From the IMG/VR virus record IMGVR_UViG_3300038829_000263, positions 6,111 to 70,110 of that record: a stretch of 64,000 nt of DNA; one strand, written 5' to 3'. Position 1 is the stretch's first letter, and the number at the start of each line of letters is the position of its first letter. The position numbers and the translations under genes are program-made. This document shows positions 26,311 to 59,000 of this stretch, in pieces. The notes below the pieces were generated by a model that was not told where the DNA came from, searched no databases, and was given only the letters and a program-made list of their open reading frames with translations. This DNA is from a virus.

Positions 26311-26987
26311 AGCGCCTGCGCGTCGCCCCTGCGCCTTGCACGACGTGCCCTTACCGGAGGGACACCCCGCCTGGCATCTGGAGCGCCGAGGAGTACGAGA
26401 AGCTCCTCATCTACGACGCCGACCCGGGGCGCCTCCGGCCCGAGAAGGTCCAGGAGGCGTTCTCGATCTTCCACTGCCATCAGGAGCACGTCACGAAGGA
26501 GCCCACGGTCTGCCGGGGCTGGCTCTCGGTACACGCCGACCATCCCGCCATGCGCCTGCTCGTCGCCCTGGGCGGAGTCCTGGCCAGCGAGATCCCGCGC
26601 GAGGCCGAGCCAGGGCTCTACGCCACGGCCCGCGAGGCTTGGGCGGCCGGGCTCGCCGGCGTCCCGATCCCCTCGCCCGCGGCGAAGAAGGCCATCGCGA
26701 AGATCGTCGACCAGCGTTCCCGGGTCGACGCCACGCCCGGCGCCTACTGGCTGCGCACGAAGCCCCAGGCCAAGGGCACGGAGTCCTGGCGGTGCCGCGC
26801 CGTGCTACCGGGCGAGGGCCGGTGCTTCCTGCGCTACCATCGCGACGAGCATCACCGCGCAGGCGAGGAGAGCGTCTGGGTGGAGTTCGACCTCGCCCCG
26901 GACGCGGCCGAGCTGGAACTGCGCGCGCAGGAGGCCCAGCGGCGGCGGGGGGCGCGGGAAGCGAGGAAGGCGCGCCGCCGTGGCTGA
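26307..26987 (+). CDS. DUF6283-like protein
   Basis: PCTTCPYRRD..PGIW...EYEKL...FHCH...CRGW. Confidence 0.65.
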   Translation: MKRLRVAPAPCTTCPYRRDTPPGIWSAEEYEKLLIYDADPGRLRPEKVQEAFSIFHCHQEHVTKEPTVCRGWLSVHADHPAMRLLVALGGVLASEIPREAEPGLYATAREAWAAGLAGVPIPSPAAKKAIAKIVDQRSRVDATPGAYWLRTKPQAKGTESWRCRAVLPGEGRCFLRYHRDEHHRAGEESVWVEFDLAPDAAELELRAQEAQRRRGAREARKARRRG

Positions 26988-27900
26988 CGCCCGCTTGCGC
27001 ACCCTCGAGCGCGAGGCCCAGGAGGGCGATGACGCGGCCCGTGGCGCCTACCTGCGCGCGCGGGTGCGTGCGGGCCTGCCCCCTTGGGTCGTGCGGCTCC
27101 TGGCCATGCTGGGCGACCCTGGAGCGCGAGCGGGCGCCGAGACTGGCGACGGGCTCTCGGACGAGTTCCACTCCAACCCGCACCGGCCGCGCGTTTCGCA
27201 CGAGACCCTCTCCATCTCGATCAACAGAGAGGCTGCGCGTGTGGATGCGCCGCCGAGCCGCGAGGCCGAGGAGGCGAGGCGCGGCGAGCCCTACGTCACA
27301 CGCAGCGGTGCCTGGCTGGCCGCGCAGATGAGCGTCGGTCGTGCCTGCTCGCCCGAGTTGGCGGACATCGTCGAGGTCGCCTTGCGCGTCAAGCTCGCCG
27401 CGGGGTGGGCGGCTCTGCCCCGCCAGGCGATGGCCGACCAGGCCCTGCTCGAGGTGTTCGTAGGTCCGCTCGGCACCCCTCCGCAAGAGCCGCGCCTGCA
27501 CCTTCGTGCGGTCGCAAACTGGCTGCGCAAGCCCGGGCCAGCGCCCGATTCGTGGGCCCTGGGATACGGCCGGGCCTGGAGCACGGGGGCGCAGGCCATC
27601 GCGCAGGACTATGCCTGCGGGGCCCGCGCCTCGCCGGTCATGCTCGACCTCGTGAGCGAGGTTCAACTCGCCGGCGAGGCCGCGGTCCTCGACACGGTGC
27701 AGGCGCACATCACCTGGTGGCTGGCGCAGCGCTTCGAGCTGCCTCCCTCGGTGCTCTCCTGGCCGCGCGATGATCCTTGGTTGCACGCCTGGCTGCTGAC
27801 GCCAGACCGGCCATCCATCGACCCATTGAGCTTGTTCCTGGTGGACGAGGAGCCTCCCTTCGTGCCTCTCTTCCCGCCCCTGCGCGCTTGGAGGCCCTGA
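26980..27900 (+). CDS. DxxLRxLER-leader family protein
   Basis: MADARLRTLEREAQEGDDAARGAYLRARVRAG. Confidence 0.65.
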   Translation: MADARLRTLEREAQEGDDAARGAYLRARVRAGLPPWVVRLLAMLGDPGARAGAETGDGLSDEFHSNPHRPRVSHETLSISINREAARVDAPPSREAEEARRGEPYVTRSGAWLAAQMSVGRACSPELADIVEVALRVKLAAGWAALPRQAMADQALLEVFVGPLGTPPQEPRLHLRAVANWLRKPGPAPDSWALGYGRAWSTGAQAIAQDYACGARASPVMLDLVSEVQLAGEAAVLDTVQAHITWWLAQRFELPPSVLSWPRDDPWLHAWLLTPDRPSIDPLSLFLVDEEPPFVPLFPPLRAWRP

Positions 27901-28397
27901 TGGCCGCGACGATGGAGCGCGCGGCCTTCCTCTCCGCCTGTCGCACCTGGCGCTACTGGCTGCTCAGGCGCTGGGACGCGGCGATGAACCCGCTCGTCGT
28001 CATCGGCCTGAACCCCTCGACGGCCGACGAGACGCAGGACGACCCTACGATCCGGCGGTGCGTCCGCTTCGCCGAGCTCTGGGGCTGCGGCGGCTTGCTC
28101 ATGCTGAACCTCTTCGCCTTCCGGGCGACGGACCCGAAGGCTCTGGCCATCGCGGCCGACCCCATCGGGCCCATGAACGACGAGGCCCTGGCGCGCGAGA
28201 GTGACGGCCGCGTGGTCCTCTGCGCCTGGGGGCGCTCGGGCGGGCCGGCGACGGCTGCCAGGGCGAAGGCCGTGGCCGGGCGCCTGCTCGCCCTTGACCG
28301 GAAGCTCTACTGCCTCGCCCGGAACAAAGACGGGAGTCCGAAGCACCCTCTCTATATGCGCGGTGACGCGCTACCCCAGCCCTGGAGCCCGCCGTGA
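27900..28397 (+). CDS. DUF1643 protein
   Basis: RYWLLRRW, GLNPSTAD...DDPTIRRC, NLFAFRATDP, KHPLY. Confidence 0.9.
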   Translation: MAATMERAAFLSACRTWRYWLLRRWDAAMNPLVVIGLNPSTADETQDDPTIRRCVRFAELWGCGGLLMLNLFAFRATDPKALAIAADPIGPMNDEALARESDGRVVLCAWGRSGGPATAARAKAVAGRLLALDRKLYCLARNKDGSPKHPLYMRGDALPQPWSPP

Positions 28398-28954
28398 ACA
28401 AGTTCATCTGCTGCGCGAACCATCCGCCTGGTGGCAACGGCCAGCCCATCGCCTGCGTAGGGATGGAGGCGATGAAGATGCTCGCCTTCCGCTGGAAAGG
28501 CCATGGGAAGTCCCCGCCGGTCAACGTCTGGGGCGCCGACTCTCTCGTGGAGAGATACTCCCAGGGCAAGGCCCCGACGCGCTTGGGCTTCGTCCTGGCT
28601 TGCCCCGAGCACCTTCCCATGGCCAGGTTGAGGGCGGCACGCCTGAGCAACCGCGGCCTCGTGGAAGAGACGGCGGTACGCGCGTGCCCCGCATGCGCAG
28701 GTTGGGGCCAGGGCGAGAACCGGCGCGGGGCCACGCCCGACGGCGGTTGCTGGATCTCGCCTGAGTGCCCGGCGTGCGCGGGGCGCGGCAACATCCCGGA
28801 CTCGCCACCCGTGCAGCGGCCCGATGTCATGGATGAGGCGCTTGTCACCGAGACCGAGGTCCGATTCTCGCGCCCTCTCACCGACGAGGAGCGCGAAGCG
28901 GTTCTGGCCTGGATCAAGGATGACGGCCTTCTGGAACTGGTGGAGGCCGAGTGA
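28394..28954 (+). CDS. Cys-rich protein with DnaJ-like CxxCxGxG motifs
   Basis: CPACAGWG, CPACAGRG. Confidence 0.5.
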   Translation: MNKFICCANHPPGGNGQPIACVGMEAMKMLAFRWKGHGKSPPVNVWGADSLVERYSQGKAPTRLGFVLACPEHLPMARLRAARLSNRGLVEETAVRACPACAGWGQGENRRGATPDGGCWISPECPACAGRGNIPDSPPVQRPDVMDEALVTETEVRFSRPLTDEEREAVLAWIKDDGLLELVEAE

Positions 28955-57497: not shown

Positions 57498-57539
57498 GGC
57501 CGACGGTTCGCTCAACGCCTGGGCCTACGGCGCGCCCAC

Positions 57540-57599
57540 CTTGCGCAAGGTAGCACGGGCGGCTAATATCAGGGCAGCGGCGAAAGGGCCGCGAAGGAG
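57540..57599 (+). promoter_or_regulatory. promoter-hairpin-SD cassette, copy 7
   Basis: TTGCGC 57541, N17, TAATAT 57564; GCGGC-gaaagg-GCCGC; AAGGAG. Confidence 0.85.
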
Positions 57600-57605
57600 C
57601 ACCCC

Positions 57606-59000
57606 GTGAGCGACGCGACGATCCGCACCCTGGACCGAGAGGCCGAGCAGACCCAGGACCCCGTGGCGATGGCGCGGGCCCGCTACGCGCGCATTCGCGC
57701 CGGCCTGGAGCCCATGCCCGAGCTGGCCCGCTACCTCGTCCTCGATCCCCTCCACCTGGAGCCCTTGCGGAAGAAGGTCGCGAAGTTCTCGCGCGTGGCC
57801 GTGGCCCGCGGCGGCCTGCCCCTCACGCTGTGGGAGGCGGACGAGGCGCAGTGGATCGAGCGGGCCCGCGAGGACGGCACGACGGCGCTGATCCGCGTGC
57901 GCGAGGTCGCGATCCTGGGCGACGTGCCGGACGCCGGCGCCTGGGGCTTCGTGGCCCAGCTCCACCACCTCCCCTCGGGGACGATCCTTCGCCGCGCCCC
58001 CGGCGCGAAGCACCTGAGCGACGAGACGCTCGAGCAGTACCGCGCCCGTGGGCCCGTCTGCGACCACTGCGAGGCGCGCCGCCTGCGGACCTACACCTAC
58101 GTCGTGCGCAACCGCGAGACGGGCGAGGTCGCCCAGGTCGGCGCTTCCTGCCTGGAGGCTTACACCTCGGCCTCGCCGAACGCGGCCGTCTACGCCTTCG
58201 ACGTGCGCCGCGAGCTGACCGAGGAGATGGAGAACTGCGCGAAGCTCGACGACGCCCCGCGCTCGGACGTCGGGATGCCCCTCCTCCCCGCCCTGGCCGT
58301 GGCCCTCTACCGCCGGGTGAACGGCACGGGCTCGGGCAGCCTGATGGACGGCGTCGGCCGCCTGATGGTCGCCCCCATGGAGTTCCCCTTCGACCTGTGG
58401 GAGAAGGCGTGCGGGATGCTCGACCTGGCCCGCGGCGTCATGCTCCCCGCCCTGGCCGAGGAGCGCCGGCTCGCGGCCGAGCGCGAGGCGGGCCGGGAGG
58501 CCACCTGGTCGGCGGCCGTCGAGCGCCTGCCCGAGCGCCTGCACAACGTGAGCGTGGTCGTGGCCGAGGGCGTCGCGAGCTACCGCGAGGAGGGCCGGGT
58601 GTCCGAGCTGCTCCTGTGGGCCGAGCGGCGCGAGAACGAGCGCTTCGCGAACGACCCCGTCGCCGGCGCGAGCCTCCTGGCCGGCCGCATGGCCCCCCTG
58701 GGCGTGGCCCCCGCGGCGCGCGGCCTGGCCGAGGGCGCGATCGTCCTCAGCCCCCGCGACCTGGCGGCGCTGCTGACGGCCGTGGCGAACGGCGGCGGCC
58801 GCGAGCTGCTGGCCGCCTGCCGCGAGGTCTCCCCCGAGGCCCGCACCGTGGCCGTGGATGACGTCGTCGTCCTGGCCGACGGCAAGGAAGGCCGGATCGG
58901 TTGGATCGGCCGGGGCCGGACGGGTGTCCAGACGGCGCGCGTCCACGTCCAGGGCGAGTACGAGCCCCGCTGGATCCCCGTGGCGGAGCTCGTGGCGTAG
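57606..59000 (+). CDS. conserved phage protein (CDHC...QVGxxC) carrying the N-terminal leader
   Basis: MSDATIRTLDREAEQTQD...ARIRAG; CDHCEARRLRTYTYVVRNRETGEVAQVGASCL. Confidence 0.7.
   Translation: MSDATIRTLDREAEQTQDPVAMARARYARIRAGLEPMPELARYLVLDPLHLEPLRKKVAKFSRVAVARGGLPLTLWEADEAQWIERAREDGTTALIRVREVAILGDVPDAGAWGFVAQLHHLPSGTILRRAPGAKHLSDETLEQYRARGPVCDHCEARRLRTYTYVVRNRETGEVAQVGASCLEAYTSASPNAAVYAFDVRRELTEEMENCAKLDDAPRSDVGMPLLPALAVALYRRVNGTGSGSLMDGVGRLMVAPMEFPFDLWEKACGMLDLARGVMLPALAEERRLAAEREAGREATWSAAVERLPERLHNVSVVVAEGVASYREEGRVSELLLWAERRENERFANDPVAGASLLAGRMAPLGVAPAARGLAEGAIVLSPRDLAALLTAVANGGGRELLAACREVSPEARTVAVDDVVVLADGKEGRIGWIGRGRTGVQTARVHVQGEYEPRWIPVAELVA

Follow-up and report, generated by a model that had tools for sequence, protein, structure and literature searches.

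In the DNA analysed here, a 64,000-nucleotide stretch (the window) that spans positions 6,111 to 70,110 of the IMG/VR record IMGVR_UViG_3300038829_000263, twelve phage proteins with largely different bodies begin with the same short helical leader. The record is a single 143,219-bp contig with a guanine-plus-cytosine (GC) content of 71%, classed in IMG/VR as a provirus with a CheckV completeness of 100. Its DNA was found in runs of one groundwater metagenome study, and we found no RNA runs containing it. The leader proved to be a real protein module that also heads greatly expanded protein families in some Planctomycetota. Our preferred reading, which we hold tentatively and at somewhat below even chances, is that this leader is the constant head of a protein family of the polymorphic-toxin-immunity type, and that the provirus carries a polyimmunity-like island of such genes. 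For the family itself, the sequence comparisons reported below are best explained by a very large immunity-type family that would reside mainly in one group of Planctomycetota.

An earlier note on this window, made by a model from the letters and a list of open reading frames (ORFs), had named twelve ORFs with a common N-terminal motif, eight of them in a leftward block, and both statements held. All twelve lie at the positions and on the strands that were named, and each begins M-[STA]-D-x(1-3)-[LIM..]-R-x-x-[EDA]-R on an ATG or GTG start codon. When the whole 143-kb genome was scanned with a start-anchored regular expression, exactly these 12 leaders were returned; in 30 Markov-2 simulations of the genome, chance leaders averaged 0.3, with a maximum of 2. 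A hidden Markov model (HMM) built from bacterial leaders only matched each of the phage leaders at residue 1, with scores from 10.5 to 59.5 bits. In a six-frame search of the whole genome at E ≤ 1e-3, the same model returned 10 of the 12, a thirteenth copy and nothing else. The note had named occurrence at a background rate as fatal to its claim, and this objection fails. The thirteenth copy is weaker, lies outside the window at genome position ~1506, and reads MDSTLRGVKRQH...RARLRAGEL...IAWALDEP. Composition is of the coding type in all 12 carriers (GC at third codon positions, GC3, 0.78 to 0.98; at second positions, GC2, 0.50 to 0.61), and a GGAGG-like ribosome-binding site stands upstream of most of them.

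The note had also observed that the leaders diverge in DNA and are conserved as protein, and this was borne out. Across the first 12 codons the copies share 59% of their DNA and 54% of their amino acids, and the longest exact word common to them is 17 nt. The charged residues D3, R7, E10, R11, and R31 are invariant or nearly so; of the invariant arginines, R7 is written with four different codons and R11 with five, much like the general codon usage of the genome. As judged from these substitution patterns, the leader is kept by selection at the amino acid level.

The module is far more abundant in bacteria than in this phage. A profile of the 12 leaders, compared with 1.84 billion representative proteins, matched 2,249 clusters (defined at 50% identity) at E ≤ 1e-3, 34 of them at ≤ 1e-10. 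Among the best 150 clusters the match starts at residue 1 in nearly all cases, the proteins being ~190 to 250 amino acids (aa) long. The bacterial consensus reads MSDERLRELERRWKETGSxEDEAAYLxERVRVGDLTxERLELAAYCGHxxA ... L..WALG. When one genome per prokaryotic species was scanned with a pattern, the positives were almost only metagenome-assembled genomes (MAGs) of Planctomycetota, several with many loci. Whole-genome searches of five Planctomycetota genomes, with 150 candidates scored in each, gave at least 42 to 88 leader matches apiece, and a further 10-Mb marine MAG gave 95. An evenly spread sample of the phylum comprised 121 genomes, of which 5 were positive (15 to 55 matches each) and the other 116 had none. 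The start codon falls exactly at model position 1 in 64 of 79 assessable host cases, the median host carrier is 223 aa long, and the same peptide is kept between genomes of 46% GC and genomes of 75 to 80% GC. The statement in the note that similar N termini occur in expanded hypothetical-protein families of some Planctomycetota is thus confirmed. Recent DNA transfer between the phage and the sampled hosts is unsupported, their only matches being codon-constrained stretches of 30 to 50 nt. A homologue search restricted to the leaders of two long carriers recovered nothing beyond the query proteins.

In structure, the leader is predicted to be a helical hairpin of ~34 aa that is usually extended to a four-helix, TPR-like mini-domain of ~57 aa. 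AlphaFold2, given a 60-residue leader alone, placed helices at residues 3-16, 19-32, 37-45, and 49-57 (predicted local distance difference test, pLDDT, 91; predicted template modelling score, pTM, 0.74). Since it is predicted confidently on its own, we regard the leader as an autonomous mini-domain; together with amino-acid-level selection and the unrelated tails, this upholds the description of a separable helical-hairpin module given in the note. Its nearest solved neighbours, TPR-like hairpin pieces, have Z ≤ 4.7 and fall short of significance. No Pfam, NCBIfam, or PHROG model matched the leader at threshold in the phage carriers or in 131 family members, and isolated leaders compared with Pfam at a permissive threshold gave no consistent family, Sel1, TPR, and SAP included. 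The TIGR02996 repeat-companion domain of Planctomycetes and Myxobacteria, considered as a possible relative, was set aside: 10 phage carriers gave no NCBIfam match, and the domain was absent among the families matched by the 131 members. A complex prediction between a host leader and a phage leader scored 0.03; it was run without controls and counts neither way.

What follows the leader is of a single type in about two thirds of host carriers. An HMM of this canonical core, made from the residues after the leader in bacterial members only, found it in 56 of 80 and then in 48 of 72 host leader ORFs. The canonical proteins have conserved N- and C-terminal frames with a variable core between them and end in ...WALG; the core is mostly alpha-helical and ~130 to 150 aa long. 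Other host tails include FHA, DUF4240, WGR, HTH_3, and STAS domains, and many are unannotated. How much of the leader the host-only leader HMM covers also varies among the phage carriers: the full 55 aa in the canonical ones, the hairpin only (residues 1-32) in c40935, c39385, c33476, and c57606, and helix 1 alone (1-17) in c38562, c38942, and c55838. The carriers, named by the window position at which they start, are as follows, with leader scores from the host-only HMM.

26980..27900, plus strand: c26980, 306 aa; full 52-aa leader, then LLAMLGDPGA, an internal WALG and a C-terminal extension; canonical-like; 48.5 bits; unmatched by the core HMM.
33476..33883, plus strand: c33476, 135 aa; leader limited to the hairpin (1-30), followed by a tail rich in beta structure (GDVIRV...) with a below-threshold match to phrog_23694 at residues 31-56.
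35493..36101, minus strand: c36101, 202 aa; canonical leader, Imm5_like-type helical core and C-terminal ...VAWALGEG; core HMM E 1.4e-18.
38011..38562, minus strand: c38562, 183 aa; helix 1, an insertion and YVAALDRAG, then a non-canonical tail; 14.8 bits over model positions 1-17.
38559..38942, minus strand: c38942, 127 aa; leader variant as in c38562, non-canonical tail; its stop overlaps the next start.
38939..39385, minus strand: c39385, 148 aa; hairpin (1-31) before a non-canonical tail; third in a trio of directly adjacent genes; 24.1 bits.
40021..40935, minus strand: c40935, 304 aa; hairpin (1-32) and a Cys-rich tail resembling multiple zinc ribbons; 34.4 bits.
43393..44079, minus strand: c44079, 228 aa; canonical leader, core and ...IAWALEEP; core HMM E 2.4e-6.
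45434..46252, minus strand: c46252, 272 aa; canonical, with a degenerate helix 1 (MSDRDMRTRARA); core HMM E 4e-8.
46249..47169, minus strand: c47169, 306 aa; canonical leader, enlarged core and ...LPWALGDGDP; opens the leftward block; C-terminal part matched by the core HMM (domain E 3e-4).
55838..56392, plus strand: c55838, 184 aa; helix 1 only (1-18), non-canonical tail containing Cys and His; 10.5 bits.
57606..59000, plus strand: c57606, 464 aa; hairpin (1-34) and a large phage-type tail; GC3 0.98.
52151..52534, plus strand: the weak extra leader of the note, 127 aa, MADATLRATIRDLLRAG; a marginal, degenerate candidate, with 9.2 bits for an HMM of the phage leaders and 3.1 bits for the host-only HMM.
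35493..47169, minus strand: the leftward block, the only one in the genome; 8 co-directional carriers (the adjacent trio and an adjacent pair among them) with ORFs lacking relatives (ORFans) and a cpYpsA-SLOG gene.

The claim in the note that the downstream domains are mostly unrelated stood in part. The carrier tails show no BLAST similarity, but the core HMM places four of the phage carriers (c36101, c46252, c44079, and c47169) in a single family. The LAAxLGD and WAL motifs of the canonical core can also be seen by eye in c26980 and the thirteenth copy, which look like further members, so that four to six phage carriers consist of the leader followed by a divergent core of the Imm5_like immunity type.

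The link to Imm5_like comes from the hosts. For five of seven matches to PF21805 (Imm5_like) in three host genomes, the ORF has a leader immediately before the match; among these five, three exceed the Pfam cut-off (41.7, 27.4, and 26.6 bits) and the other two fall just below it. Weak matches to Imm5_like, Imm5, or DUF6931 occur in 10 of the 131 family members, and none to Imm5_like or Imm5 was found in the phage carriers at E ≤ 1. Among Atlas feature matches, c44079 pairs with Planctomycetota clusters of ~200 to 230 aa at 0.92 and with Imm5/Imm5_like at 0.81. From this profile similarity, the canonical core is best assigned as a divergent Imm5_like domain. According to Zhang et al. 2012 (PMC3482391), Imm5 itself is mostly alpha-helical and is an immunity protein for deaminase and CdiA-C toxins. 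With a bacterial alignment, AlphaFold2 modelled c36101 as an all-alpha protein of twelve helices (pLDDT 87, pTM 0.84). Fold searches of the full canonical model, Foldseek and VIA wide among them, against the PDB, AFDB clusters, and Atlas gave no convincing relative, and 7jtu_B, the immunity chain of a deaminase toxin complex, was rejected as a fold relative because its Z of 4.5 is within noise.

Some host leader genes lie against toxin genes. Two genomes supplied four loci (L006, L007, L015, and L017) at which the gene for a canonical leader protein stands tail to tail with the 3' end of an RHS toxin gene or with an orphan RHS tip, at spacings that range from a 20-nt overlap to a 9-nt gap. The RHS proteins of L006 and L007 are 94.6% identical over the core and wholly different over their last ~280 residues, and each of these tips faces a different leader protein; as judged from the alignment, the pair appears to be a clear case of tip replacement in a planctomycete. 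DNA homology between paired loci covers the upstream region and the first ~155 to 160 nt of the leader gene and stops at the leader's end, which was seen in two independent host comparisons; for L006 and L007 it resumes ~1.3 kb further on, inside the RHS core. On these boundaries, immunity core and toxin tip are most simply read as a variable unit bracketed by two conserved arms, one of which is the leader-coding segment. The two RHS toxins (L006:6629-12055 and L007:6604-10311, both on the minus strand) lie 18 kb apart on one contig, one of their tips is a DUF3990 domain, and integrase genes are nearby; more generally, host leader genes often lie beside integrases and transposases.

Taken together, these results suggest the following picture. 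A typical member would consist of the leader, a divergent Imm5_like domain as its helical and fast-evolving core, and the conserved ...WALG C terminus; in roughly one member out of three, other small domains would replace the core. The task of the variable part in the hosts would be to neutralise one particular toxin. A swappable cassette of immunity core plus toxin tip would be bracketed by the RHS core on one side and, on the other, by the 5' segment that encodes the leader, together with the region upstream of it, and this bracketing would give a reason at the DNA level why a constant 5' module sits on unrelated tails. Because selection acts on the amino acids of every carrier, the peptide should also have a shared job as a protein; most likely it would serve as a constant structural or interaction handle for binding either some feature that the toxins keep constant or one cellular factor in common. 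The provirus, with 13 and perhaps 14 leader genes, mostly in a co-directional block without a toxin gene, would then hold a phage-borne, polyimmunity-like island, which might protect the infected or lysogenised cell against the toxins of its neighbours or against toxin-based host defence.

Several observations weigh against this picture. The pairing with toxin tips is convergent, not in the usual co-directional order of toxin and then immunity gene, and it was seen at only 4 of ~50 leader loci, from just two genomes. When RHS genes were chosen without regard to leaders, none of 20 was directly abutted at its toxin stop by a leader gene. In four cases a leader gene lay 0.6 to 6.9 kb downstream, compared with roughly one expected, and none of those four abuts an orphan tip. 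Leader proteins are thus ruled out as general RHS immunity proteins, and since none of the independently chosen genes was directly abutted, only a subset of the family would be tip-paired. We found no RHS gene in the phage genome. The phage carriers lack any Pfam, NCBIfam, or PHROG match at threshold, most host members score below the Imm5_like cut-off, and the model fits no solved immunity protein convincingly (best Z 4.8). Moreover, seven or eight of the phage tails are non-canonical, some of them zinc-ribbon-like, and their immunity character would be putative, and host tails such as FHA, STAS, HTH, and WGR are signalling domains rather than immunity domains.

The comparison with described immunity systems is close in some respects. 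Like Imm5 and Imm5_like (PF14423, PF21805; PMC3482391), the family has a mostly alpha-helical core, some host members above the PF21805 cut-off, and some genes that abut variable RHS tips; going by Atlas cluster labels, Imm5_like occurs in viruses too. It differs in that the leader lies outside the Pfam model; in one match, profile position 18 aligns at residue 87, which puts the model's start near residue 70. The 15 to 90 copies per genome seen here are also far above what is described for Imm5, toxin pairing is convergent, and most members and all phage copies fall below threshold. Polyimmunity loci are tandem, same-orientation runs of immunity genes without a toxin, often next to recombinases, and polyimmunity proteins combine several immunity domains in one chain (PMC3482391). 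The eight carriers at 35493-47169 form such a run (at least four tandem, same-orientation genes of the immunity type without a toxin gene), if the non-canonical tails are assumed to be immunity domains. The phage block, the 15-gene bacterial array described below, and the integrases, which were seen beside host loci only, all resemble such loci, and polyimmunity proteins have a counterpart in multi-unit proteins with two to four leader-headed units. In contrast to the described cases, every unit here starts with the same small domain. The RHS and contact-dependent inhibition (CDI) systems, which recombine variable tips onto constant regions, likewise place a conserved segment beside a variable cassette with a sharp break in homology; here, however, the second arm is the 5' end of a convergent immunity gene, and tip and immunity core would be exchanged together.

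The largest array was found on a 94-kb, 46%-GC groundwater scaffold from Rifle (scaffold_404; G125:C17, loci L119-L123), on which 17 ORFs start with the hairpin and 15 of them form one co-directional array of 20 kb whose tails are several small families and singletons. The scaffold encodes GyrB, an aminoacyl-tRNA synthetase, a DNA ligase, and a Ser/Thr kinase with an FGE domain, as an ordinary bacterial chromosome would, which rules out a mis-binned phage, and it showed no match to the terminase of our phage or to Terminase_6N. It was binned in a Woesearchaeota MAG and is probably mis-binned in that archaeal genome; the kinase with its FGE-sulfatase domain is typical of the Planctomycetes-Verrucomicrobia-Chlamydiae (PVC) group. 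In other proteins a single polypeptide contains two to four hairpins, and a different small domain comes after each of them. A basic motif, RRRN[PAST]D, invariably stands before the internal copies, in the place that M-S-D takes in N-terminal ones (P0001, P0004, P0009, P0010, P0112, and P0126), and in the 46%-GC array (L121-L122) the in-frame residues upstream of each Met are also rich in K and R. The basic motif may mark a site of processing, or it may be left over from a polyprotein ancestor.

The leader itself can be accounted for in other ways. That DNA homology ends exactly at the leader's end in two independent host comparisons would fit a leader with no shared protein function, one that merely caps a helical fold at its N terminus while its coding DNA, close to the promoter, acts as a recombination arm. 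Foreign tails would then be by-products of cassette exchange that keep the promoter, the ribosome-binding site, and the start codon. The conserved frames around the variable core of canonical proteins are consistent with this account, as are the three phage carriers that match over just 17 residues. We nevertheless consider it rather improbable, given that synonymous divergence has left the amino acids in place in all 12 phage copies (59% DNA identity, shared words of at most 17 nt, four to five codons at each invariant Arg), that the peptide is kept between 46%-GC and 75-80%-GC genomes, and that the leader is predicted to fold alone. Conservation of this kind, which holds even where helix 1 alone survives and centres on the charged residues D3, R7, E10, R11, and R31, would suit a docking tag or adaptor that binds one common host hub or other leaders. 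Dozens of host proteins that differ in their C-terminal domains would thereby connect to one machine, which the phage could hijack or jam by giving its own proteins the same plug, and toxin immunity would be one output among others. Such a role would also accord with the unrelated tails in host and phage (FHA, STAS, HTH, WGR, DUF4240, and zinc-ribbon-like domains among them), with a predicted autonomous fold whose nearest neighbours are TPR-like, and with an all-or-many distribution among genomes that resembles lineage-specific adaptor families. Precedent exists in the effector-associated domains EAD1-10, of which one copy sits on a core component of a system and others on its effectors, often in an adjacent gene (Kaur et al. 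2020, PMC7159879). Like them, the leader is a small, non-enzymatic, mostly alpha-helical terminal domain on many different proteins of one genome, in conflict-system contexts and in bacteria with complex lifestyles; unlike them, it has mostly non-enzymatic tails and no visible operon coupling. Neither the Pfam-scanned host carriers nor ~170 HMM-screened ones include a leader on a core component of the EAD type (VMAP, iSTAND, GAP1, or Ubl), and among those ~170 host carriers there is no hub with the module and no STAND, vWA-MoxR, or GTPase core. No conserved gene or recurrent family emerged among the neighbours of host leader genes, and the single core type of two thirds of carriers is more readily expected of a family with a constant head than of a general adaptor. 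For the proposal in the note that the leader routes diverse cargo to one receptor, no receptor was found, and we regard the adaptor role as unlikely; host-tag hijacking, which the note had also suggested, is a minority reading.

A doubtful extension of the same idea would make the leader a trans-acting plug for one constant partner, be it the conserved part of incoming toxins, a clade-specific hub, or other leaders. Dozens of host proteins would be wired into one network, and the phage would fit the plug to 13 proteins, its own zinc-ribbon and ORFan domains included, in order to enter or jam that network, while the coding DNA would double as a second homology arm for the joint exchange of tip and core. 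By analogy, bacteria and phages would here have their own counterpart to the logic of F-box proteins or EADs, resting on a new domain; this extension too seems unlikely. Poxviruses encode many ankyrin/PRANC paralogs in which one small, host-type, F-box-like helical domain is joined to variable parts. The likeness is an analogy only, with no sequence or fold relationship to the leader and no hub known here. Two further proposals of the note fared worse. Loading into the capsid, with ejection to follow, would make the leader comparable to the T4 capsid-targeting sequence, which the note cited, or to the helix-turn-helix of a scaffold; in favour of it are the many small, otherwise unannotated phage proteins with an Arg-rich N-terminal helical hairpin. 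The module is overwhelmingly chromosomal, however, with 15 to 90 copies per bacterial genome beside kinases, two-component systems, and housekeeping genes, and mostly on cores of the Imm5_like type; all phage carriers lie outside the structural module, which begins at the terminase; and because position 8 is variable there is no conserved L/I-x-E site of the kind at which T4-type sequences are removed. We consider capsid loading extremely improbable. An address read by a clade-specific export or sorting machine would be in keeping with the strict N-terminal position, the clade-restricted distribution, and the basic RRRN motif before internal copies, but it is very improbable as well. Two highly charged amphipathic helices without a hydrophobic core do not make a Sec or Tat signal peptide, the immunity-type, HTH, FHA, and STAS tails are cytoplasmic domains, and an N-terminal export signal would not recur two to four times inside one polypeptide.

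Immunity families, polyimmunity loci, and recombination between constant and variable parts are all known kinds of system. In the literature searched we found no description of the leader domain, of its all-or-many distribution, or of a provirus that carries 13 copies; nor did we meet a convergent, two-arm cassette layout, for which no dedicated search was made. The module has no Pfam or NCBIfam model in spite of more than 2,000 clusters and up to ~90 copies per genome. It is tied to polymorphic-toxin immunity in Planctomycetota, a phylum in which such conflict systems have hardly been studied, and one provirus carries a whole stock of these genes. If our preferred immunity reading is true, the phage would supply pre-emptive protection against interbacterial toxins, and a constant immunity-gene head and an RHS core would bracket a swappable cassette of toxin tip and immunity core. 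If the leader docks instead, a phage would be exploiting a new adaptor system. Under either reading, the module offers a practical marker by which phages can be tied to this group of hosts.

Some smaller observations concern the phage genes. The tail of c33476 is 38% identical over 39 aa (pairwise E 1e-4) to a leaderless ORF at 25858-26310 on the plus strand, which lends weak support to the idea that the same small domain may occur with and without the leader; a search of the phage for leaderless paralogs of carrier tails at E < 1e-3 found none. The tail of c57606 resembles phage hypothetical clusters, at the level of a lead only. Nucleotide-related accessory genes lie among the carriers: a circularly permuted YpsA SLOG protein (PF12694, 2e-43) is encoded within the leftward block at window 44641-45258 on the minus strand, and a PAPS-reductase-like protein just beyond it at 47603-48724 on the plus strand. 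The octamer CTAATATC, which resembles a -10 element, lies 6 nt upstream of the GTG of c47169 (window 47170-47185, minus strand), so this first gene of the leftward block may be read from a leaderless or very short-leader mRNA; the same octamer recurs ~35 nt upstream of the GTG of c57606 (window 57560-57605).

INPHARED phages showed no relatives of the window DNA, of c47169, or of one host family member, and IMG/VR yielded nothing to a host-type leader or to the terminase. Searched with the phage-type leader, IMG/VR gave a single unrelated contig (66% GC, 46 kb) with three adjacent leader ORFs, one of which has a zinc-ribbon-like tail and one a canonical C terminus. Finally, a 31-kb, integrase-bearing contig of 69% GC (L002; logan SRR13608733, also in GCA_964519985.1), whose genes are mostly ORFans, encodes five proteins that together contain at least six hairpins; one of the five has a ferritin domain and another is a DUF5754 protein. 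This contig may be another mobile element that uses the module.

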